64,000 nt of DNA from Candidatus Poriferihabitaceae bacterium (GTDB lineage Bacteria; Pseudomonadota; Gammaproteobacteria; Arenicellales; Poriferihabitantaceae): contig CBDBQH010000003.1 in assembly GCA_965208975.1 (NCBI GenBank), forward strand, positions 1,348,792-1,412,791, written 5' to 3'. The stretch's first letter is position 1. Each line of letters starts with the position of its first letter. Positions 23,180 through 39,329 of the stretch are shown here, one piece after another. Under the pieces are notes generated by a model that saw nothing but the letters and a program-made list of their open reading frames with translations, was not told where the DNA came from and did not search any database. A program made the translations under genes and the position numbers.

Positions 23180-24559
23180 TCAGTACATATGAGACTCAAC
23201 TTGAGTCTCTTTGCAGGAATCTGATACGGAATTTCCATATTTGTACGATAGTTTCGTAAGCCTCCCTGTCAAGTGGAAAGTTCGCAAGCATCCTGGCTTT
23301 TCCAGGTAGAAAATATCCTGATAAATCGTCTTATTCCAAAATCTGAATCCAGGATTCATCAAATCTGATTGATTCCAGGACGGCCTCTCTATCCAGTTGT
23401 GGCGGTTCCTTGATTTTAATTGCCAGACGCTTTTTGGGGACATCTTCAATAATGGTGAATTGCGCCCGGAAATGAGACGGATTTTTGAGACAGTGGAAGG
23501 TCGGCGATTCTTTGCCGTTTTGGCTCCCCATGCTGTTTGCTGCAAAACAATATCATCAATCACCAGCTTATCGGTTTCCTCTTGAGAAAATGTCGACACC
23601 CAATCTGTGGCTTGTATCAGATTCCTGATGACTGCCTGCGCCACAGGTACAGGAAGACTATTGCCCGCCTGCTTCCTGGTTTGCGAATAGTTACAAACAA
23701 TCCTGGCCTCTTCGGGAAATCCCTGGAGCCGCAGCATTTCCCGCACAGTCAGCCTTCTTTCACCGTTCACCAGAAGGTAGTTGTAAGAAGCGCCCGCGCG
23801 CAATGCACACGAAAACGGATAGGCGCTGATATGTCCGGCCTTGTTCTCATGCCAGATGGTCGGTTCTTTCGTAGGTTTTTGCTTGCTTAGTCTCTTCCGC
23901 CTGATATGACCGGAGGCAAAATATTCTTCGGGAACATCTTTTTCCAGGATTTCACTCAATGGACGCATCGGGATGTTTCCAGCAGGCCAGTTGAAATAGC
24001 GTGGGGAGCGGAAGCCAACAATAAAGACACGTTCCCTTTTCTGTGGCAGACCAAAATCCAGAGCGTTCAATACCTTATAAGTTGTGTAGTATCCCAACTC
24101 GTCCAGAGTTTCCAAAATCCGATTCAGGGTTTGTCCCTTGCTGTGCCCAACCAGCAACTTCACATTTTCCAGCACAAACGCCGCCGGTTTCTTCTCTGCC
24201 AATATGCGCGCTATATCAAAGAACAATGTCCCTCTGGTATCGTCAAAGCCGCGCATATTGCCGATGATACTGAACGGCTGGCATGGGAAACCAGCCAGCA
24301 GAATGTCGTGGTCGGGGATGTCCTGCGCGGCTATCTCCATAATATCGCCGTGTGGGGTTTCGCCAAAGTTCTCTGCGTAGGCTCTCTGGCATTCCTGATC
24401 AATCTCACTGCTGAAGACACACTCGACATCCGCACCAAGATCGGCGCCCGCATTTTGCATGGCATAACGAAACCCGCCAATACCGGCAAACAGGTCGATA
24501 AATCGGACGGTTTTTTTCTTCCCTGTATATCCGGTATTCATGACCGGAATATAGCACAT
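23180..24559 (-). CDS. dcm: DNA (cytosine-5)-methyltransferase with a ~130-aa C-terminal extension of unknown function
   Basis: Motif I DLFAGIGG, IV GFPCQPFS, VI ENV, VIII QKRERVF, IX TVREMLRLQGFP, X GNSLPVPV (about residue 300-310). The ORF then continues ~130 aa with no recognised motif. Confidence 0.9.
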   Translation of the reverse strand: MCYIPVMNTGYTGKKKTVRFIDLFAGIGGFRYAMQNAGADLGADVECVFSSEIDQECQRAYAENFGETPHGDIMEIAAQDIPDHDILLAGFPCQPFSIIGNMRGFDDTRGTLFFDIARILAEKKPAAFVLENVKLLVGHSKGQTLNRILETLDELGYYTTYKVLNALDFGLPQKRERVFIVGFRSPRYFNWPAGNIPMRPLSEILEKDVPEEYFASGHIRRKRLSKQKPTKEPTIWHENKAGHISAYPFSCALRAGASYNYLLVNGERRLTVREMLRLQGFPEEARIVCNYSQTRKQAGNSLPVPVAQAVIRNLIQATDWVSTFSQEETDKLVIDDIVLQQTAWGAKTAKNRRPSTVSKIRLISGRNSPLLKMSPKSVWQLKSRNRHNWIERPSWNQSDLMNPGFRFWNKTIYQDIFYLEKPGCLRTFHLTGRLTKLSYKYGNSVSDSCKETQVESHMY

Positions 24560-28395: not shown

Positions 28396-28877
28396 CGGCT
28401 GATCCGGCTAATGTATAGCCAGTCCGAATTGTGGATTGTGTGAATCAATCCAGTGAAGTCATCAGCCAGCCGGTAGCCAAGCGGATAGCGGAGGTTGTGA
28501 CGGGTATATTAGGCAGTGGGAGCTTGCAGTTGTCGATGGTTGTGGTGCGTCATGGCAAACAACAACCGATGGTATTGGTCAGTACCGAGCGGATACGGGG
28601 TCGTTTGCAAGGGGAGCGATTGATTCAATCGTATATGGGTCGTTGGGCCTGTGAGGAAGGGTATCGGTTCAGCAAGCAGGGGTTTGGATTGGAGAAGGTT
28701 CAAGCCCGGAAACTGGCGACCTTGCAGAATCTGGTTGCACTGGCGACGTTAGCCTGGGGATTGCTGGCCTGTCACCAGAATCAGGGGCAGAAACTCATCT
28801 ACAAGGCGAAACGGCAAAAGAGTCACAAACCCCTGGTTTTCCCGTTCTACACGCTGTTATCGGGCTGGCAGGCGTTA
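28191..28877 (+). repeat. 687-bp direct repeat, copy A
   Basis: Colinear with 40246-40932 at a constant offset of 12055 nt. No indels detected from ORF and junction comparison. Scattered substitutions. Confidence 0.9.
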
Positions 28878-28991
28878 TTTGCGGATGCCAAAACCCTTTT
28901 TTATGACTGGTGGAGAAAACCCAAACGCCCCCCACCCAGACAGGCTGACCTGTTCATCAATAACGGGCGGCTTGCGCCCATCCTCTCATGA
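28431..28991 (+). mobile_element. IS4-family DDE transposase, C-terminal fragment (186 aa)
   Basis: Contains the Y-(2)-R-(3)-E-(6)-K signature (YMGRWACEEGYRFSK). Lacks the N-terminal catalytic D residues and DNA-binding region. GTG start. Confidence 0.65.
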
Positions 28992-29240
28992 AAAAATGGG
29001 GAGACCTTAGTTTATATGCTTGTTGCCCATATCTGATATAATCCGATAATTCAACCACTAACGTTTATGAGTAATAGTTTATGAGTGATAGAAAATCCAG
29101 CCCGGCGAAAAAAACTTCCAAACAATCAGAAAGTAGTGGTAAATTTCCTCGCTCCCAACCAACTAATCCAGCAGATAAGAGACATATAAACAAAACGACC
29201 GATACAATGAGGCCCCCACCGAAACCGAAAAGATAAATCC

Positions 29241-29780
29241 ATGTCCATGTCAAAAAGCCAATTTTCAGATTACTCTGACAGAATGTGGGAGTTACTCTTT
29301 TCAGTGCGTCGATCTTTTCATTACCATGAGCATCGGGAACGGTTTTTCACACTGCTGCATAACATGGTAAATTTAACCTGGATAATCTGTGGAACCCTTG
29401 CCGTGTGGAAATTGATGGAAAGTGACACACAGATATATTTAGTCGCTGTTCCAACTATTGCGTCTGTGATAGACATTATTATTGGTTTTGCTTCTAAAAT
29501 ATCTGTGCACAAGGTTCTGAAACAAAGATACCTGCAATTGGAAACGGAAATTGTCAGTGACCCGGACAATCAGAAATATGTGGATTTTCATCGTAAACGC
29601 AGAGTTATCGAATCGGATGAGCCACCTAAATTACATGCGTTGGATGTGCTTTGCCACAACGAAGTGGTCCGCGCTTCTTACCCCCCTGAGGATGCCAGGG
29701 AACATTTGGCAAAAGTTCCATGGTTGCCCCGATGCTCTGCTCAACTTTTGTCCTGGCCCAAGACAATGAGTTCAATATGA
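29241..29780 (+). CDS. 2-TM membrane protein with SLATT-like architecture
   Basis: 179 aa. Cytoplasmic helix (RRSFHYHEHRERFF), two adjacent TM helices (LTWIICGTLAVW, IYLVAVPTIASVIDIIIGF), then the helix SVHKVLKQRYLQLETEI. The layout resembles SLATT effectors. Family not verified. Confidence 0.5.
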   Translation: MSMSKSQFSDYSDRMWELLFSVRRSFHYHEHRERFFTLLHNMVNLTWIICGTLAVWKLMESDTQIYLVAVPTIASVIDIIIGFASKISVHKVLKQRYLQLETEIVSDPDNQKYVDFHRKRRVIESDEPPKLHALDVLCHNEVVRASYPPEDAREHLAKVPWLPRCSAQLLSWPKTMSSI

Positions 29781-29876
29781 GCGCTTTGGTAAAGGACAGG
29801 CGCTCCCGGCAATAAAGTCTCTCACTGATTCATCCGGCAACCTTGATGGACCTGCTGCATAAGTTCTCACAGAATT

Positions 29877-31727
29877 ATGGATCGAACCCGGAAATATCAT
29901 GAGAGGCTGATCGGATTGCTCAAAACCGATGTGCGCTTCATTGATGATGAAGGGGAGCTGGTCAAGGCGGCAGTGATTGACCGCGCCTGGAAAATGGACC
30001 ACGGCCTGATGAGACTGTTGCTTGGCGATGAAAGAATAAAGACACAGTTCTTTGATGAAATTGAAGGGCATTGGCTTTTCAATACGAACACATTCATTGA
30101 CTACCTCTCCGATAAAAACTTCCTGGCCAATTCATATACCCGATTCCGCAACCGGATTGGTTTGAACATTGACAATAAATTCCTGCGACAGCGGGGCGAA
30201 GTATCCCTGGTTTGGCCATACAAGGATTGCGTACTGGAAGGCGGACAGACCAAAGAGGAGGAAAAACGCAAGGAGATTTTCTTCAATGAAATTCTGGCAC
30301 AGGACGAGATCGACCGATTACTCGACCCGAAAGTAATCACCAACTGGAAACGCTATACGATTGACGGTGATCAGAAAGTTACCGGGATCAGGCGGGATGA
30401 TGCCGGCGTAATCCGGGAAAATCTGATTATCAAGGGCAACAACCTGCTGGCATTACATACACTGAAAAAACAGTTCCGGGGCAAGGTAAAGCTGATTTAT
30501 ATTGATCCTCCATTTAATACAGAACGAGACAGTTTTACCTATAATGACAGTTTTACACATTCAGCATGGCTAACTTTTATACGGAGCCGACTTCTGGTTG
30601 CTTATGATCTTTTAAGGGCCGATGGAAATATTTTTGTACATGTTGACAACAATGAATCTCATTACATGAAGATCGTGCTGGATGAAGTTTTTGGAAGGGA
30701 AAATTTTGTAAATGAAATTATTTGGCACAAAGGAAGAGAAGGGGGTAGTTCGAGGTCACACTCAAAGAGTTCAGCAATGCCAACTGAATATCAGAATATT
30801 TTCATTTTTGCGAAAAACAAGTCATCGAGATTTTGGAACCCACCACTAGGCCCATATAAAAAATCCACTATTGGCCGAATTGAGAAAGATTCAAAAGGCT
30901 GGTTTTATACGAGGGGTCGAATGGGTAGAACACCAGCCGAATGGGAATTGCAAGCAGGATCAGGATTGAAAACATACATTTCTGACAGAGTTGATCTTGA
31001 TAAAGACAGAGTCATAGAAACCCTGACTGCACCCAATGCAAAATATGTAGCCATAGGAGATGTTTGGGGAAGAGAATTAGTAAAAAATTCAAAGGAAGCA
31101 AACTACGACACATCTAAACCAGAAGGATTGCTGAAGATGATCATTGAGGCAGCATCTAATCCGGGTGATTTAGTACTTGATTTCTTTCTTGGGAGTGGGA
31201 CGACTATGGCAGTATGCTTAAAATTGGATAGGAGATGTATAGGTATAGAACAGTTAGAAGGAGGAATAAACGCACTGATTCCGAGACTAAAAAATGTCAT
31301 CGGAAAAAATCTACAACAGAAGGAAAGCTTCCTCGAAGAAATTGAATGCGACACTGGCGGCATCTCCAAATCCGTAAACTGGCAAGGCGGTGGCGATTTT
31401 ATCTACTGTAAGTTGATGCGATACAACGAAGTCTGGATGGATAAAATCCAGGCCGGACGGTCTTCCGAGGAACTTGTAAAACTCTGGAAAGACATTGCTG
31501 AAAACTCCTTCCTGAACTGGTATGTGAACCCTGAAATCCCGGCGGAGGCGCTGACTGATTTTATTGCCATCGGGAAAAAGGAAAACGGGCTGGAGAAGCA
31601 AAAAACATTATTAGCGGAACTGCTGAACAAAAATCAACTCTACGTCAATCTTTCGGAAATAGACGACCAGGATTTTGCCGTCAACGAGGAAGATAAAGCA
31701 TTGAACAGAAAATTCTATGGATACTAA
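29877..31727 (+). CDS. mod: type III restriction-modification methyltransferase (Mod)
   Basis: 616 aa. N-terminal block NSYTRFRNRIGL, motif IV IYIDPPFNT before motif I LVLDFFLGSGTT (beta-class order), and the flanking AWLTFIRSRL...DGNIFVHVD typical of Mod. Confidence 0.9.
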   Translation: MDRTRKYHERLIGLLKTDVRFIDDEGELVKAAVIDRAWKMDHGLMRLLLGDERIKTQFFDEIEGHWLFNTNTFIDYLSDKNFLANSYTRFRNRIGLNIDNKFLRQRGEVSLVWPYKDCVLEGGQTKEEEKRKEIFFNEILAQDEIDRLLDPKVITNWKRYTIDGDQKVTGIRRDDAGVIRENLIIKGNNLLALHTLKKQFRGKVKLIYIDPPFNTERDSFTYNDSFTHSAWLTFIRSRLLVAYDLLRADGNIFVHVDNNESHYMKIVLDEVFGRENFVNEIIWHKGREGGSSRSHSKSSAMPTEYQNIFIFAKNKSSRFWNPPLGPYKKSTIGRIEKDSKGWFYTRGRMGRTPAEWELQAGSGLKTYISDRVDLDKDRVIETLTAPNAKYVAIGDVWGRELVKNSKEANYDTSKPEGLLKMIIEAASNPGDLVLDFFLGSGTTMAVCLKLDRRCIGIEQLEGGINALIPRLKNVIGKNLQQKESFLEEIECDTGGISKSVNWQGGGDFIYCKLMRYNEVWMDKIQAGRSSEELVKLWKDIAENSFLNWYVNPEIPAEALTDFIAIGKKENGLEKQKTLLAELLNKNQLYVNLSEIDDQDFAVNEEDKALNRKFYGY

Positions 31728-31773
31728 ACCGCTAATGACACAGGAATATTCAGCGCATCATCAGGAGTAAATT

Positions 31774-32001
31774 ATGAGAACAGAAATACAAACTACCCAA
31801 GATATATGGCCCATGCTGACACCCGTTGTTTTCGTTCCCCATGCGGATAATGAATACCAACGGTTGGTGGCTGTACTGGATAATTTGATTGATGTGGTGG
31901 GCGAAGATGAAAGCCACCCCCTGGCCTCACTCATGGAGGTCATTGGCGTGTTGATAGAAAAATATGAGGATGACCACGTTCCTGAACTGACGGAGGCATA
32001 A
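31774..32001 (+). CDS. small protein resembling only the N-terminal (non-HTH) part of HigA-type antitoxins
   Basis: 75 aa. Strong SD AGGAG 7 nt upstream of the ATG. LTPVVFVPHADNEYQRLVAVLDNLIDVVGEDESHPLASLMEVIGVLIEKYE parallels the E. coli HigA N-terminal region. No room for an HTH before res. Confidence 0.5.
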   Translation: MRTEIQTTQDIWPMLTPVVFVPHADNEYQRLVAVLDNLIDVVGEDESHPLASLMEVIGVLIEKYEDDHVPELTEA

Positions 32002-32052
32002 CAATCAGAAGACGGGCTCATTGGGAAACCAATCATTTCACCGGGCGATAAG

Positions 32053-34623
32053 ATGGCTGACAAGTATTTGTATGAGATACTGGATTCCGTCTCCCAAATG
32101 GGATTGTTAAAGAAAGAAATCCCCCGTTATCTCACGGATAATCTGAACCCCGCCCTTCAACTGCGTCCCTATCAGGAAGAAGTATTCGCCCGTTTTTTCC
32201 ACTGTCTTGCCAATGATTTTCCCGGCAAGAATCAGCCGTTGCATTTTCTGTTCAACATGGCAACTGGCAGTGGCAAAACCCTGATCATGGCGGGGTTGAT
32301 TCTCTATCTGTACGGGAAAGGCTATCGAAACTTTCTGTTTTTTGTCAACGCCTCGAATATCATTGAAAAGACAAAGGATAACTTCCTCAATCCGCTCTCA
32401 TCCAAATATCTGTTCAACGAAAACATCCATTACGGTACAAAAAGAATTGAGATAGCTCCAGTCACCAATTTTGAAGGCGCCAACGAAAACGGCATCAACA
32501 TCTGTTTTACCACTATCCAAAAACTGCATTCCAGTCTGACTATTGATAAAGAAAACGCGTTGACCTTTGAGGATTTCAGTAGAGGAAAAACCGTCCTTCT
32601 CGCAGATGAAGCCCACCACATCAACGTAAACACGAGGGCCGGAAAGAAATTATTTGAGAGTTGGGAAAATACGGTAGAACGCATCTTTATTCAGCACAAA
32701 AATAATTTACTGCTGGAATTTACCGCCACCCTGGATTACACCGATACAAATCTTGTCGATAAATACCGTAACAAAGTGTTATACCGATATGACCTGCGAC
32801 AGTTCCGCAATGACGGCTATTCCAAAGACGTTTGCATTGTTCAGGCAGATTTTGAGGAGAAAGACCGGATCATACAGGCGCTTATCCTCAACCAGTACAA
32901 GCAGGAAGTTGCAGCGAAATACACTATCAATTGCAAGCCGGTCATCCTGTTCAAGGCACAAAGAACAATTGCCCAATCCAAAGAGAACAAAGCCAGATTC
33001 CATAAGATCATTGAGAATCTTTCAGGCGATGACATTGACCGGATTTGGGACCAGTCAAACCTGCCACTGGTAAAGAGTGCATTTACTTTCTTCAAAGAAA
33101 ATCATATCTCTGCCAATCAGCTGGCGAAAAGGCTTCGCAGAGAATTTGATGAGAGTCGTTGTATTTCCGTAAATGAAGAAAAAGAAAAAGAAAATCAACA
33201 GATATTACTCAATACTCTGGAAGAACGGGATAACCATATTCGAGCCATTTTTGCAGTACAGAAACTGAATGAGGGTTGGGATGTCCTGAACCTGTTCGAT
33301 ATTGTCCGTTGTTATACGAATCGGGATGCAAAGGCTGGGAAACCGGGAAAAACAACTATTGCCGAAGCGCAATTAATCGGACGCGGAGCGCGTTATTTCC
33401 CTTTTGTTACCAACGACAACCCCGACCGATACCGGCGGAAATTCGACCAGAATCTGACTTCTGAACTGCGTGTGCTGGAAGAGATGCACTACCACAGTAT
33501 AAATGATTCCCGCTATATCTCTGAGTTACGTACTGCGTTGATTCAGGAAGGTATGGTAGATGAACGAGAGGTGACCAAGCCGCTCACACTAAAGGATTCG
33601 TTCAAGGCCACAGAGTTTTACCGGCATGGATTGGTCTACCTGAACAGCCGGGTCAGAAACCGATATGAAAAGGTTTACTCATTTTCTGATATGGGCGTTT
33701 CGTTACAAAACTATCAATATACGCTTGCAACCGGCCGGGGAGCATCTCAGTCCATCCTCGATAACAACGACAGTGTCAGTCAGGTCAAAGAAGCAGGCTC
33801 ACAAGAAATCAAAGTAAGGGATATTCCTGTTCACATAGTCAGAAATGCCATTGCCCAAAATTCTTTCTTTTCTTTCAACTCCATTAAAAAATATTTTCCT
33901 CATATTGAATCGGTGCGCCAATTCATTGATTCGGATGACTATCTCGGGGGGTTGGCAATCACATTTCAGGGAAATTTCCCCAACCCGTTACCTAATAAGG
34001 TCCAACTGGATGCGGTAACGGGTCTGCTCGGGGAAATCGAATCTGAGATGCGTAGAAATGCTACGGAATACAGGGGAACAGAAACATTCAAGCCATACGG
34101 GGTTGGTTCTGTATTCACGGCTAAAACCCTCAAATTGATTGAAGGCAGTGAAAGGGCCAATGGTGACGATCCGTTTGTTTCCGACAGGGAATGGTATGTC
34201 TTCAGCGCAAACTACGGGACCGGAGAGGAAAAGGCTTTTGTCCGGATGCTTGACCGCCAGATGGGTACACTGAAAGAAAAATACGATGAAATTTACCTGG
34301 TCCGCAATGAAAGGCATTTCAAGATTTACAGTTTTGACGACGGACAGGCGTTTGAACCGGATTTTGTTCTTGCTCTACGGGAGAAAAATGGAAATATGCT
34401 TACCTACCAGATGTTTGTTGAGCCTAAAGGAAAACATCTAAAAGATCATGACAAGTGGAAAGAGGAGTTTCTGCAACAAATTACGGACAAATTCAAGGGA
34501 AAAACACTGGAATTCAAAACGAAAATCAAGACCCAAAAATACAGGCTGGTGGGGGTTCCGTTTTATAACAATGAAGATGAAAACAGATTTAAGGAAAGTT
34601 TGTATGAGGCGGTGGGAATGTAG
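32053..34623 (+). CDS. res: type III restriction enzyme Res subunit (SF2 helicase + PD-(D/E)XK nuclease)
   Basis: 856 aa. Motif I MATGSGKT, II LLADEAHH, III FTAT, VI QLIGRGAR. C-terminal nuclease FEPDFVL...FVEPKG. Confidence 0.9.
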   Translation: MADKYLYEILDSVSQMGLLKKEIPRYLTDNLNPALQLRPYQEEVFARFFHCLANDFPGKNQPLHFLFNMATGSGKTLIMAGLILYLYGKGYRNFLFFVNASNIIEKTKDNFLNPLSSKYLFNENIHYGTKRIEIAPVTNFEGANENGINICFTTIQKLHSSLTIDKENALTFEDFSRGKTVLLADEAHHINVNTRAGKKLFESWENTVERIFIQHKNNLLLEFTATLDYTDTNLVDKYRNKVLYRYDLRQFRNDGYSKDVCIVQADFEEKDRIIQALILNQYKQEVAAKYTINCKPVILFKAQRTIAQSKENKARFHKIIENLSGDDIDRIWDQSNLPLVKSAFTFFKENHISANQLAKRLRREFDESRCISVNEEKEKENQQILLNTLEERDNHIRAIFAVQKLNEGWDVLNLFDIVRCYTNRDAKAGKPGKTTIAEAQLIGRGARYFPFVTNDNPDRYRRKFDQNLTSELRVLEEMHYHSINDSRYISELRTALIQEGMVDEREVTKPLTLKDSFKATEFYRHGLVYLNSRVRNRYEKVYSFSDMGVSLQNYQYTLATGRGASQSILDNNDSVSQVKEAGSQEIKVRDIPVHIVRNAIAQNSFFSFNSIKKYFPHIESVRQFIDSDDYLGGLAITFQGNFPNPLPNKVQLDAVTGLLGEIESEMRRNATEYRGTETFKPYGVGSVFTAKTLKLIEGSERANGDDPFVSDREWYVFSANYGTGEEKAFVRMLDRQMGTLKEKYDEIYLVRNERHFKIYSFDDGQAFEPDFVLALREKNGNMLTYQMFVEPKGKHLKDHDKWKEEFLQQITDKFKGKTLEFKTKIKTQKYRLVGVPFYNNEDENRFKESLYEAVGM

Positions 34624-34812
34624 GGCTGTTGACTAATACTTTGGTTAATGAATCTGGTAAAAGCTTGTTGGGCAATGTGAAATGTTGATACCACCAAGGT
34701 TAAAAAGAGCGACAGGCCCACGATAGTATAGGACCATGCACCCCGATGGAGTATTATCAACAACTCACACTCAGTGCCTGAGTTTCATATGCACTGAACC
34801 CGAACACCTTCG

Positions 34813-34841
34813 TTGCATACATAGAGTACCACCCACATAAT
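34813..34841 (+). promoter_or_regulatory. candidate sigma70 promoter of the TIR-SLATT pair (TTGCAT-N17-CATAAT)
   Basis: TTGCAT 34813-34818, 17-nt spacer, CATAAT 34836-34841, about 43 nt upstream of ATG 34884, which has SD AAGGGGA. Confidence 0.45.
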
Positions 34842-34883
34842 ATTCGGGAATGTGAAAATTTCGTCCAAAATAAGGGGATATAA

Positions 34884-35312
34884 ATGAGTACAAGACAAAT
34901 CCACGTTTTTATTAGTCATTCATGGGCTTACTCAAATCATTATCAAACTCTAGCTGATTGGATTTTTAATCAAAAGTGGAGCGTGGAGCAGGCATCCCTG
35001 GATTTTCGAGATTATTCTGTTCCACAAAGTGACCCAGTCCATAATGCAAATAATGACACGCAATTAAGACAAGCGCTTTACAATCAAATATCACGAAGCC
35101 ACGTTATTGTCATCCCAACTGGAATGTATGCCTCTTACAGTAAGTGGATACAAAAAGAGATTGATGGAGCTAGCCATTATAGAAAGCCTGTATTGGCAGT
35201 TAACCCCTGGGGCGCTCAAAGAACTTCTTCATATGTTAAAGATGTAGCAGACAAAATCGTTGGCTGGAATGCCAAGACTGTTGTTGGCGGGATTTGGGAA
35301 TTGTACAAGTGA
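34884..35312 (+). CDS. TIR-like domain protein (DUF1863/ThsB-like)
   Basis: 142 aa. IHVFISHSW start strand, VIVIPTGMYASYSKWIQKEIDGA containing the S-x-W-x(3)-E glutamate context used by TIR NADases, KPVLAVNPWG. Confidence 0.8.
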   Translation: MSTRQIHVFISHSWAYSNHYQTLADWIFNQKWSVEQASLDFRDYSVPQSDPVHNANNDTQLRQALYNQISRSHVIVIPTGMYASYSKWIQKEIDGASHYRKPVLAVNPWGAQRTSSYVKDVADKIVGWNAKTVVGGIWELYK

Positions 35313-36196
35313 TGAACGAATTTAAAATAAAATCTAGTGAAATGCCTGGATTGTATCAGTCTGCTGACCGGGCATCTCTTGATGCTCAAAGTAGTTACTT
35401 TACGGGCTTGCGATGGTATCTCGTCTTGCTGATTTGTGCTGCTTTTATTTCGTATGCTCGGCCCAATGACCTTATAGGTGCACTACTATCAGCAAGTCTA
35501 TTTTTAATCACTCTTGGAATTCTTGTGTTTATTCGTGTCAAAAAGCCTGATGACATTTGGTATAACGGCAGAGCTGTTGCTGAGTCAGTTAAAACAAGGG
35601 CTTGGCGATGGATGATGAGAGCTGAGCCTTATGAAGACCACCAAAACATTGAAATAGTTTCTAAACAATTCATTAACGATCTAAAAGCAATACTTAGTCA
35701 AAATAAAAGCTTATCCCATTCTCTTCAATCAACGGATGCTGTGGATGATCCTATTTCCCAGCCGATGAAGGATATAAGGACACTTTCCGTGTCTGAGAGA
35801 TTAGGAATATATGTAGATCAAAGAATTCAGAATCAAGTCAATTGGTATTGGACTAAATCCGGCTTTAATAAGCGTCGAGCCCAGCAATGGTTTTGGGTGT
35901 CCGTATTTTTGCATGCGTCAGCAATAGCCATGTTGTTATATCGGATTAAAGATCCAACCTTCTCTCTTCCGGTAGAGGTGGTTGCTACCTCAGCAGGAGC
36001 GGTATTAACTTGGTTACAAGCCAAAAAGCATAACGAACTAAATTCCGCATACGCTCTTGCTGCACATGAAATTGTATTGATAAAGGGAGAGTCTGCTTCT
36101 GTTTGTCGTGAACAGCAGCTTTCGGAATATGTGGTAAATAGTGAGGCAGCTTTCTCACGAGAACATACTCAATGGGTTGCTCGAAAAGGAGACTAG
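35312..36196 (+). CDS. SLATT/DUF4231-type membrane protein with two tandem 2-TM modules
   Basis: ATG overlaps the TIR stop (TGATG). Module 1 has TMs WYLVLLICAAFISY and LLSASLFLITLGILVFI followed by WYNGRAVAESVKTRAWRWMMRAEPY. Module 2 has RIQNQVNWYWTKSGFNKRRAQQWFWVSVFLHASAIAMLLY plus a further TM, then ELNSAYALAAHEI. Confidence 0.75.
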   Translation: MNEFKIKSSEMPGLYQSADRASLDAQSSYFTGLRWYLVLLICAAFISYARPNDLIGALLSASLFLITLGILVFIRVKKPDDIWYNGRAVAESVKTRAWRWMMRAEPYEDHQNIEIVSKQFINDLKAILSQNKSLSHSLQSTDAVDDPISQPMKDIRTLSVSERLGIYVDQRIQNQVNWYWTKSGFNKRRAQQWFWVSVFLHASAIAMLLYRIKDPTFSLPVEVVATSAGAVLTWLQAKKHNELNSAYALAAHEIVLIKGESASVCREQQLSEYVVNSEAAFSREHTQWVARKGD

Positions 36197-36348
36197 TTGC
36201 TAACAAAGCACTGCTACCGGAAAAAATTTTCTACTACTCACTAAACGGGCGTCCAGAACCATCCGAACAAGGTTAGCCCCATTGTTTCCAAAATCTGATG
36301 TTTTTGTGTCATCCTGAAAGATGATGGTGCGCGCAGATGTACGGCGTT

Positions 36349-36378
36349 TTGTATTATTAGAAACTAGTGCTGTATGAT
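36349..36378 (+). promoter_or_regulatory. candidate sigma70 promoter of the OLD-type gene (TTGTAT-N18-TATGAT)
   Basis: TTGTAT 36349-36354, 18-nt spacer, TATGAT 36373-36378, 26 nt upstream of ATG 36405. Confidence 0.4.
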
Positions 36379-36404
36379 GCACGGTTTTGTATCGGTTGCA
36401 GAAT

Positions 36405-38377
36405 ATGAAATTAACACACGCTCGGGTCCAAAACTTCCGTTCTATTCTTGATACAGGGAAGTTTTCTATAAACGACCTTTGTTGCCTTGTTGGGAAAAAT
36501 GAGGCAGGTAAAACTGCAACACTCACTGCTGTACAGTCAATTCTTCCATACGGGGATCCACAAACGTATTTTGATGTAACGGAAGACTACCCCCGTCGTT
36601 TTGCTACACGCTACCACGAAAGGCATAAAAATTCTGAGGCTGTTGTGGTAGAGACATGGTGGCAGCTTTGTGATGAGGGGTATGAACGGCTTTGTGAAGA
36701 ATTTAGCGAGGACGCTGTAAGGTCTCGTGAATTTCGCATTTACAAAAAATATAACACCGAAAATACTATATGGGATTTTGATCTGGATGAAGCTGTTGTA
36801 GTAGCGAGTATTCTTAAAGCCCATAGGTTGAATGCTACTGAGCAAGCCAGTCTTTCAAAATGTTCGACTATTTTGCAAGTTTTGGAAAAAATTGAAACCC
36901 GTGAGGAACCAACTGAAAAATTGAGAGCGATTGCTAAACATTTCGAGAACTATCAAAGATCAATTCAGTATAAAGCAACCGAATTGGTTGGTGATCTGGT
37001 TCCGACCTTCTTTTATACGTCTCATTATGACCGAATGAGCGGTAAATTGTCGATACAGAAAATTGCAGACAGAAAATTGCAGAGGACAAAAAAAATGATA
37101 ATGTTGATCCAGAAGATGAAATATTCCTGGATTTTCTGCGTCTTGCCGGAACTTCGCTGGAGGAATTGAATGAGGTGTCACGGTTCGAAGAACTCAACGC
37201 CAAATGTGAAGCAGCCTCCGCGGATATCACGGATCAAATATTCAAATACTGGTCTCAAAATGACAATCTTGAGGTAGAAGTAAAGCTCAGCGAGGGGCGA
37301 CCGGGCGATCCAGCACCTTTTAATTCTGGCGCCGTGGCTCGAGCTCGAGTATATAATCGGCTGCACCGGGCGAGTGTTTCCTTTTCTGATCGCAGTGCAG
37401 GTTTTGTCTGGTTTTTCTCCTTTCTTGTCCAGTTTGCCATGATGAGGCGCAATACAAGCAATGTAATCATACTACTTGACGAGCCTGGCCTGACGCTACA
37501 CGGAAAGGCACAAGCTGACTTGCTTCGCTATATTGAAGCTGAGCTTCTGCCTGACCACCAGGTTGTTTACACAACCCATTCCCCATTCATGGTTCCGCCG
37601 CAGAGGTTAGCTGATTGTCGTGTAGTTGAAGACGTTGTCAAACGCGACGAGCGAGACCGTCCTGTATCTGAAGGAACCAAGATTACAGATGACGCGATGA
37701 GCACAGACAAGGACACATTGTTCCCGTTACAAGGTGCGCTTGGCTACTCCGTCACTCAATCACTTTTCGTCGGTAAGAACAGCCTCCTTGTTGAAGGCAC
37801 ATCCGACATCCTGTATTTGCAGGCGCTATCGAGTGAAATTGAAAAGCGCGGTGGGATGTCACTCGACCCGAAATGGACACTCTGCCCTGCCGGGGGCATA
37901 GACAACCTGAGGCCATTCGTTTCCTTGTTCGCTGGAAACCACCTCAACATCGCGGTTCTTTCGGATCAAGCACAAGGAGATAAAAGTAAGGTTGAACGGC
38001 TCAGGAGAAGCGAAATTCTTGCCGCTGAACGGTTCCATACGATCGCTGAATTGCTTGACGAAGATGAAGCAGATATTGAGGACTTGTTTGTATCTGAATT
38101 GTTCTGTCGGATCGTAAATGAAGCTTATGGGTTAGAAGGAAATCATGCAGTTACGCCAGAAAAATTGAACGAAGTCGCAAATACAGAAAGGCAGGTTAAA
38201 CGGGTGGAGGCTTATTTCAATCGTCTGCCAGAAGCCATTCCAACTTTCAGCCATTTTCGTCCAGCAGAGTGGCTCATTCACAATGGAGAGATTTTGTCTG
38301 AGAAATCGGATTCGGTAAAAGGCACGCTTGAAAGAGCAGAGAAAATTTTTAAGATTTACAACGAAATATTGATATAG
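36405..38377 (+). pseudogene. OLD-family-type ABC ATPase + TOPRIM nuclease gene, frameshifted by a 14-bp tandem duplication
   Basis: Walker A VGKNEAGKT (N-terminal ORF 36387/36405-37169). Walker B IILLDEPG, H-loop TTHSP and TOPRIM-like LLVEGTSDILYL (ORF 37166-38377). Deleting one 14-bp copy joins the two ORFs in frame, giving ...GKLSIQKIAEDKKNDNVDPEDEIFLDFLRLAGTSLEELNEVSRF... Confidence 0.8.
37055..37083 (+). repeat. 14-bp tandem duplication (cagaaaattgcaga x2; period-14 identity spans 29 nt)
   Basis: 37056-37069 equals 37070-37083. The preceding base also matches. Confidence 0.95.
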
Positions 38378-39329
38378 CTGTCCCACTATAATTACAAAGC
38401 CCACCCGCCCCCGGCCCCAGATGTTCCTCTTTGCGCTCTTCCGCTAACTGAACCTGTCTCCCCCGCTCTGCAAACCGCGCCCTGTCCTGTTGTGAGCGCT
38501 TGCCGTGACATTTCGGGCAACTCACGCCCGGCTGATAATACTCGCTGGCCTTGTCTTTCTCCGTAACCGGCATGCGGCAGCCGTGGCACTGGTCATAACG
38601 GCCCCGGTTCAAATCATGGTCAACCGTGACCCGTTCATCGAACACGAAACATTCGCCCCGCCATCGGGACTCCGATACCGGGACGGTTGCGAGATAATTC
38701 AGGATTCCGCCTTGCAGATGATATACGGATTCAAAGCCGTTCTGTTTCAGGAAGGCCGTGGCTTTTTCGCAACGGATGCCGCCGGTGCAATACATGGCGA
38801 TCTTTTTGTGTGTTTCCGGGTCCAGGTTTTCCAATGCGTATTGCGGAAATTCCCTGAAATTGGTGGTATGGGGATTGACCGCATTTTCAAAGCGCCCCAC
38901 CTCGATCTCGTATTCGTTGCGGGTATCGACCACAAGCGTTTCGGGGTCTTCCAGCAGCGCATTCCAGTCTTCGGGATCAATATAGGTCCCCGCCAGTACC
39001 TGCGGATCAATATCTTCGACCCCCATGGTGACGATTTCTTCTTTCAGCTTGACCCGGGTGCGTTTGAACGGCATCCGGTCGGTCCCGGACTGCTTGTATT
39101 CAATACCGGAAAAACCGGCTTGCCCCTCCAGCCACTTCAGAAATTGATCAATCGCTTGCCGCTCACCGGCGATCGTGCCATTGATCCCTTCTTTCGCAAG
39201 CAACAAGGTGCCGGTGAGCGACAAGCCGGATAATTGATCCAGCATCGGTTGTTGCAGGGAAACGTAATGGGCAAGCGGCGTGAATTTATAAAATGTGCAA
39301 ACCACCAGGTTGTTTGCAGGTTCTGTCAT
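38349..39329 (-). CDS. trhO: rhodanese-domain tRNA uridine(34) hydroxylase (UPF0176/YceA family)
   Basis: 326 aa. N-terminus VCTFYKF..., EGINGTIAG, rhodanese active-site loop CTGGIRCEK, C-terminal Cys cluster CHGC...CPKCHG. Confidence 0.85.
   Translation of the reverse strand: MTEPANNLVVCTFYKFTPLAHYVSLQQPMLDQLSGLSLTGTLLLAKEGINGTIAGERQAIDQFLKWLEGQAGFSGIEYKQSGTDRMPFKRTRVKLKEEIVTMGVEDIDPQVLAGTYIDPEDWNALLEDPETLVVDTRNEYEIEVGRFENAVNPHTTNFREFPQYALENLDPETHKKIAMYCTGGIRCEKATAFLKQNGFESVYHLQGGILNYLATVPVSESRWRGECFVFDERVTVDHDLNRGRYDQCHGCRMPVTEKDKASEYYQPGVSCPKCHGKRSQQDRARFAERGRQVQLAEERKEEHLGPGAGGLCNYSGTAISIFRCKS

Follow-up and report, generated by a model that had tools for sequence, protein, structure and literature searches.

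What kind of system is encoded by two overlapping, co-oriented genes, one for a small TIR-domain protein and the other for a membrane protein with two SLATT domains, in a 64,000-nt stretch of the genome of Candidatus Poriferihabitaceae bacterium (contig CBDBQH010000003.1)? Below, the window is this whole stretch, and all coordinates are window positions. An earlier note, made from the letters of the sequence alone, had read the pair as a stand-alone abortive-infection module in which a generator of a nucleotide signal is coupled to a membrane effector, and had called it essentially uncharacterised. The reading as a stand-alone module is supported by family matches, by the co-occurrence of the two genes in other genomes and by homology to a validated system. 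The second part of the claim is superseded: operons of a TIR gene and a SLATT gene have been described as type VII Thoeris, with the components ThsB and ThsH, by Yirmiya et al. (bioRxiv 10.64898/2025.12.03.692087, December 2025), and a further system that combines TIR and SLATT proteins has been described as Shaseng (bioRxiv 10.1101/2024.12.27.630466). We conclude that the locus is very probably a type VII Thoeris anti-phage system (thsB + thsH), and thus an intact further example of a system that has already been characterised.

Probable identity as type VII Thoeris

The association of TIR and SLATT domains had already been reported in earlier comparative genomics. According to Yirmiya et al., type VII systems from an Alteromonadales scaffold, from Pseudohongiella nitratireducens SCS-111 and from Bacillus licheniformis SCCB 37 defend against phages, and the TIRs of these three systems produce canonical cyclic ADP-ribose (cADPR) only after infection, as measured by liquid chromatography-mass spectrometry (bioRxiv 10.64898/2025.12.03.692087). 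In the same preprint, added cADPR (and not 2'cADPR or 3'cADPR) arrested the growth of cells carrying the Alteromonadales or the B. licheniformis system, and the sponge proteins Tad1 and MoTad2 did not block defence by the Alteromonadales system. Shaseng was validated independently, and inactivation of its TIR abolishes immunity (bioRxiv 10.1101/2024.12.27.630466).

We compared the window pair with these systems through homologous loci collected in a survey of genomes (loci L001–L080, see below). The TIR domain of the tested Pseudohongiella ThsB, as given in Table S1 of the preprint, is identical at 139 of 139 positions to the TIR open reading frame (ORF) of locus L019, from P. nitratireducens SCS-49. 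Between the window ThsB and the tested Pseudohongiella ThsB, the identity is 66% (E 6e-72). The window ThsH aligns along its whole length of 294 aa with the product of the gene next to thsB in L019, at 64% identity, and this product has the same architecture (SLATT_3 followed by SLATT_1). In two other loci, L077 and L080, the TIRs share 83–84% identity with the validated Alteromonadales ThsB, and the adjoining ThsH proteins are 40–41% identical to that of the window, at full length. Together, these homologies indicate that the validated proteobacterial systems all use one effector family. All sequence features of type VII are found in the window, namely a ThsB-type TIR, an adjacent SLATT membrane effector, a conserved pairing of the two and the catalytic glutamate, and the pair is located in a defence island. 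From its 66% identity to the tested ThsB, the window ThsB is expected to make canonical cADPR on infection.

The closest likeness is to the Pseudohongiella system, with which the window pair shares the gene order (TIR, then SLATT), overlapping genes, the TIR lineage and a ThsH of the same length. The two systems differ in about one third of their residues, in their hosts and in their genomic surroundings, and the overlap between the genes is 1 nt in the window (TGATG) versus 8 nt in L019. The Alteromonadales and B. licheniformis systems, which signal by cADPR, are likewise pairs of a TIR and a SLATT effector, but their TIRs belong to other lineages (22% and 18% identical to the window TIR, respectively, the latter in the alignment). 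In type VIII Thoeris (ThsB plus ThsI, a CMP-hydrolase/TPR protein), the ThsB falls into the TIR cluster of the Pseudohongiella ThsB (2734565194), shares 37% identity with the window TIR in the alignment and makes canonical cADPR; the effector of type VIII is a soluble nucleotide hydrolase, whereas that of the window is a SLATT membrane protein. Shaseng (the TIR proteins SasA and SasB plus a SLATT protein), which we compared by its description, is also a TIR + SLATT transmembrane defence system, but it has two TIR genes and reported control by a CRISPR crlRNA, whereas the window has one TIR gene and no nearby CRISPR element.

The TIR protein ThsB

The earlier note had called the two proteins a TIR-like DUF1863/ThsB protein of 142 aa and a double SLATT/DUF4231 protein of 294 aa, and had proposed profile searches and a survey of co-occurrence as checks. 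Its coordinates, lengths and TGATG overlap are reproduced by our analysis, and the profile searches matched all four families (ThsB_TIR, SLATT_3, SLATT_1 and DUF4231), with NCBIfam in agreement with the Pfam assignments. The first ORF matches ThsB_TIR (PF08937, formerly DUF1863) with E 2.5e-16 and 60.3 bits (cutoff 21.2), and the ThsB models of PADLOC with E 1.7e-8. In total, 1165 homologues of ThsB were detected.

Glu92, within the segment SKWIQKE, is the residue that had been assigned to the glutamate position of TIR NADases, and the alignments bear this out. It is invariant among 36 close homologues and in an alignment with the validated type I, IV, VII and VIII ThsB domains, and at least 90% of 77 TIR proteins that are partners of the SLATT effector family have it. 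It aligns with the glutamate of the RYEI segment in the ThsB of Bacillus cereus MSX-D12, which we take to be E85 by our own numbering of the published sequence. E85 is reportedly the residue that was mutated in the original Thoeris work.

An AlphaFold2 model of ThsB built with 36 homologues (mean predicted local distance difference test score, pLDDT, 87.5) has an alternating beta/alpha fold. The nearest solved folds found by Foldseek include MTH538 (1EIW), a B. cereus TIR protein (8FZ9) and EcThsB (8WCF), but generic Rossmann-like proteins are interspersed among them (E about 1e-3 to 1e-4), so that the matches support a TIR fold for the model but are not discriminating alone. A sequence search of the PDB with ThsB matched only MTH538. 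ThsB is predicted, by homology, to be both infection sensor and cADPR synthase. The earlier note had seen no sensor in the unit; in Thoeris, the ThsB TIR itself senses infection, e.g. by capsid sensing in staphylococcal Thoeris (PMC12578639).

The SLATT protein ThsH

In Pfam, the second ORF matches SLATT_3 at residues 12–163 (E 5e-43) and then SLATT_1 at residues 167–288 (E 2e-31); a match to DUF4231 overlaps the N-terminal half (E 2e-12). We detected 1936 homologues, of which the top 120 are about 294 aa long, are 68–100% identical to the window protein and have the same Pfam pair. The closest named homologue, from Methylocaldum sp., is 84% identical. No model of PADLOC 2.0 (2023) matches ThsH.

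The AlphaFold2 model of ThsH is all-helical (mean pLDDT 84), with two long helical hairpins (H13–49/H54–77 and H160–213/H221–263). Hydropathy gives membrane spans at about 32–50, 54–74 and 193–212, and a weaker fourth span at about 221–238, which stays under the Kyte-Doolittle cut-off of 1.5. The two modules of two transmembrane helices proposed earlier are therefore recovered as hairpins, with a weak fourth span, and ThsH is predicted by the model to have four membrane helices in two hairpins. Within each hairpin, the loop between the helices is short (4–8 residues). Basic, conserved segments adjoin the hairpins on one side, among them PDDxWYNGRAVAESVKTRxWRW after helix 2, AKKHNELNSAYAL after helix 4, and AFSREHTQW at the C-terminus. 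In the model, this layout is consistent with a cytoplasmic ligand-sensing face. The invariant basic residues of ThsH (R87, K94, R99, K238, K239 and R283) are candidates for the predicted binding pocket. AlphaFold3 predictions in the type VII preprint have ThsH as membrane-spanning oligomers with positively charged pockets between the protomers (bioRxiv 10.64898/2025.12.03.692087). A sequence search of the PDB with ThsH gave no match, and a Foldseek search with the model gave only non-significant matches to helical bundles (the best being ExbB, E 0.2), so no structural analogue of ThsH can be claimed.

Conservation of the pair and the choice of messenger

With one genome taken per species, we found 322 loci with a ThsH relative and kept 80 of them, which span Gamma-, Delta- and Epsilonproteobacteria, Bacteroidota, Cyanobacteria and others. 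The ORF directly upstream of the SLATT gene could be taken in 76 loci, all of which were scanned against Pfam. Of these 76 loci, 69 have a ThsB_TIR protein as the abutting upstream ORF, and in 66 of them the two genes overlap, or no more than 11 nt lie between the end of the partner gene and the start of thsH. The most common junction is an overlap of 4 nt (19 loci), and an overlap of 1 nt, as in the window, is found in 9 loci. These two counts make the pairing and the translational coupling, which the earlier note had read from the single TGATG junction, conserved features and not a matter of chance.

Using the best match to the reference TIRs of the preprint as the assignment of lineage, we found at least five divergent ThsB lineages as partners of a single ThsH family. 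The best match was the Pseudohongiella type VII TIR in 11 cases (the window included), a '3TM'-associated TIR of the same cluster in 1, type-IV-like TIRs of 135–143 aa in 22, a 157-aa lineage like cluster 2598792572 in 15, type-VIII-like TIRs in 9 and the Alteromonadales type in 3; no match was obtained for 16, including a 194-aa class from Bacteroidota. This variety points to modular swapping of sensors on a fixed effector.

Because ThsH is combined with at least five ThsB lineages, one of which also feeds other Thoeris effectors, ThsH might answer to more than one TIR product, or the window ThsB might sense a different phage feature, or make a different messenger, than the systems tested. 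We consider this unlikely; if true, the window copy would be a functionally new variant of type VII.

An explanation that keeps the architecture and changes only the signal is that ThsB makes 3'cADPR, 2'cADPR, His-ADPR (a histidine-ADP-ribose product) or another NAD+-derived signal, with a ThsH tuned to match. In its favour, a few substitutions can alter the product specificity of a TIR, and the one ThsH family is found with divergent TIR lineages; some of these TIRs come nearest to cluster 2598792572, to which the preprint also assigns TIRs of types II and X. However, the window TIR lies in the Pseudohongiella ThsB lineage, and both the Pseudohongiella TIR and the type VIII TIRs of cluster 2734565194 make canonical cADPR. 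Moreover, ThsH is highly conserved, at 40–79% identity across the differing TIR partners, including those of the Alteromonadales-type systems that respond to cADPR. A different messenger in the window is thus quite improbable.

Several other points weigh against reading the pair as a working type VII system. Of six type VII candidates that Yirmiya et al. tested, three failed to protect the heterologous host (bioRxiv 10.64898/2025.12.03.692087), and the source for type VII is itself a preprint. An identity of 64–66% to a validated system is strong, yet it is no proof of the same signal or the same phage range. The mechanism of the effector (oligomerisation, and a pore or a filament) rests on the AlphaFold3 models of the preprint, and there is no SLATT structure in the PDB. 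As PADLOC of 2023 has no model for the SLATT partner, the assignment was made by pairwise homology and not with a curated type VII profile. Lastly, no clear promoter or terminator was found around the pair (see below).

We note three kinds of unusual loci in the survey. ThsH homologues without an abutting TIR ORF occur in L003, L013, L050, L064, L069 and others, where the upstream genes include those for PMSR, PfkB, an epimerase and a DDE transposase; in such loci the system may have been disrupted, or ThsH may be an orphan. Three loci carry a second TIR gene 3' of thsH besides the upstream one (L055, 6921–7322; L056, 1637–2047; L061, 7672–8094), an arrangement reminiscent of the two TIRs of Shaseng. 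In L009, a thsB-thsH pair 79% and 71% identical to that of the window is found on a 3.4-kb contig binned as a metagenome-assembled genome of Methanosarcina sp., and represents either horizontal transfer into archaea or a binning artefact.

Proposed mechanism

Phage defence, cADPR production that depends on infection, and toxicity specific to cADPR have been established by others in close homologues. In the window, the same family pair is present and intact, with its catalytic residue kept and in a defence island. By analogy, the small TIR protein ThsB would be inactive in uninfected cells and would be activated by phage infection, probably through direct recognition of a phage component, as in other types of Thoeris. 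Through Glu92, the activated ThsB would then cyclise NAD+ to canonical (N1) cADPR, a reaction shown for the 66%-identical homologue. The messenger may bind the conserved, positively charged cytoplasmic segments of ThsH, which would oligomerise and breach the inner membrane, as suggested by the models of the preprint and by the SLATT effectors of CBASS (cyclic-oligonucleotide-based anti-phage signalling). The infected cell would die or stop growing ahead of phage release, i.e., by abortive infection. The phage trigger, the ligand-binding site, and the oligomerisation with membrane breach are the parts of this scheme that we infer.

The roles of the two proteins might also be distributed otherwise, with the TIR as a toxic effector that depletes NAD+ and the SLATT protein as sensor, anchor or second, independent toxin, which would make the pair no true Thoeris. 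Many bacterial TIRs are NADase effectors (in CBASS, Pycsar, TIR-pAgo and Avs systems), and the type VII preprint raises the same caveat for its unverified types. But in type VII added cADPR alone arrests growth, and cADPR, the product of the TIR, arises only on infection. In addition, the window TIR is a minimal ThsB-type domain of 142 aa without a sensor extension, and SLATT proteins serve as effectors in other systems. We therefore regard this distribution of roles as very unlikely, and retain the type VII reading with ThsB as producer of the signal and ThsH as effector.

An infection-triggered signal or enzyme that acts through a cell-killing effector is common to type I and type II Thoeris, to CBASS with 2TM/SLATT effectors and to the systems of a reverse transcriptase (RT) and a SLATT protein (DRT10/UG17), and SLATT is the membrane effector in the CBASS and RT systems. 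The messengers of type I and type II Thoeris and of CBASS differ, being 3'cADPR, His-ADPR or cyclic oligonucleotides. We scanned the pair and its neighbours against Pfam for the partners that define these systems. Type I or type II Thoeris would have a SIR2-SLOG (ThsA) or a Macro-TM effector next to the TIR, but the pair and the scanned neighbours lack SIR2, SLOG and Macro domains. CBASS with a SLATT/2TM effector would have a CD-NTase (SMODS) cyclase gene in the operon, but the upstream partner is a TIR, and the neighbourhood gave no SMODS/CD-NTase match. DRT10/UG17 would have a reverse transcriptase beside the SLATT gene, but no RT domain was found in the flanking ORFs. These systems were rejected because their defining partner genes are absent.

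If the type VII reading is right, the locus is one more intact natural example of cADPR-based Thoeris immunity. Two practical points follow from the analysis, namely that PADLOC 2.0 (2023) recognises only the TIR half of the system, and that many TIR sensors make use of a single conserved SLATT effector; neither alters current understanding. What the TIR senses, how cADPR is bound by the double-SLATT protein and how this protein breaches the membrane are questions of the whole family and not of the window copy.

Genomic context

The pair is located in an island of low GC content (41–44% from about 29000 to 37500, as compared to 53–55% in the flanks) that extends from about 28400 to 38400. Table 1 lists the features of the pair and its neighbours. 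The host has a GC content of about 54%, and it acquired the pair inside this low-GC defence island.

Table 1. Features of the thsB-thsH pair and of the surrounding island, in window positions.
Feature	Position	Strand	Remarks
Candidate sigma-70 promoter TTGCAT-N17-CATAAT	34813..34841	+	Weak; 3/6 and 5/6 consensus matches (8/12)
Shine-Dalgarno sequence AAGGGG	34872..34877	+	6 nt 5' of the thsB ATG; read from the sequence
thsB (ORF1)	34884..35312	+	ATG 34884, TGA 35310-35312; 142 aa; TIR-domain protein, ThsB_TIR (ex-DUF1863)
Codon of ThsB Glu92 (SKWIQKE)	35157-35159	+	Glutamate at the catalytic position
TGATG stop/start overlap of thsB and thsH	35310..35314	+	One base common to the thsB stop and the thsH ATG
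thsH (ORF2)	35312..36196	+	ATG 35312-35314, stop at 36196; 294 aa; membrane protein, SLATT_3 + SLATT_1
SLATT_3 of thsH	35345-35800	+	Pfam match
SLATT_1 of thsH	35810-36175	+	Pfam match
C5 cytosine methyltransferase	23180..24559	-	Left of the island
DDE transposase fragment	28431..28991		Island edge
Type III restriction-modification mod	29877..31727		Upstream of the pair
Type III restriction-modification res	32053..34623		Upstream of the pair
OLD-family ATPase-TOPRIM gene	36405..38377	+	AAA_15 ATPase and OLD-like TOPRIM; GajA/Old/AriA-like in PADLOC

A one-base frameshift in an A8 homopolymer, at about 37087-37094, divides the OLD-family gene directly downstream of the pair into two ORFs (36405..37169 and 37166..38377). 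It may reflect an error in the sequencing, a gene that has become a pseudogene, or a switch for phase variation.

This frameshifted neighbour, together with the transposase fragment at the island edge and the lack of a convincing promoter or terminator, would suit a defence island of which a silent or decaying remnant is left, or an addiction pair of the toxin-antitoxin kind without an anti-phage role in the host, but both ORFs are full length and keep all family-invariant residues, the coupling junction is intact and the pair is conserved as a unit across phyla, which makes such a fate highly improbable.

Upstream signals

The earlier note had proposed a promoter and a good Shine-Dalgarno sequence for thsB. 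The Shine-Dalgarno sequence holds (Table 1). For the promoter, the hexamers are present as described, but they form a weak match that was not reported by our promoter scan of the region, in which shuffled sequence gave a mean of 5.4 sites as compared to 1 in the real region, i.e., no enrichment. We consider the promoter plausible and do not count it as evidence. It overlaps an 11-nt imperfect inverted repeat (34788-34798 and 34809-34819). We looked for an intrinsic terminator after thsH and found none, and scans with Rfam and for tRNAs found no RNA gene within the operon or adjoining it.

When the sequences upstream of the genes in ten related loci were aligned, no conserved -35/-10 pair emerged that includes the window. 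Eight related loci, which come from different hosts (L004–L007, L019, L039, L010 and L065), have a motif, (G)TTATGCA(A/T/C), 22–38 nt 5' of the thsB ATG. The window has no exact copy of it, only CGTTGCATA (34811-34819), within the inverted repeat spanning 34788-34819. The motif may be a promoter or an operator that moves along with the cassette.

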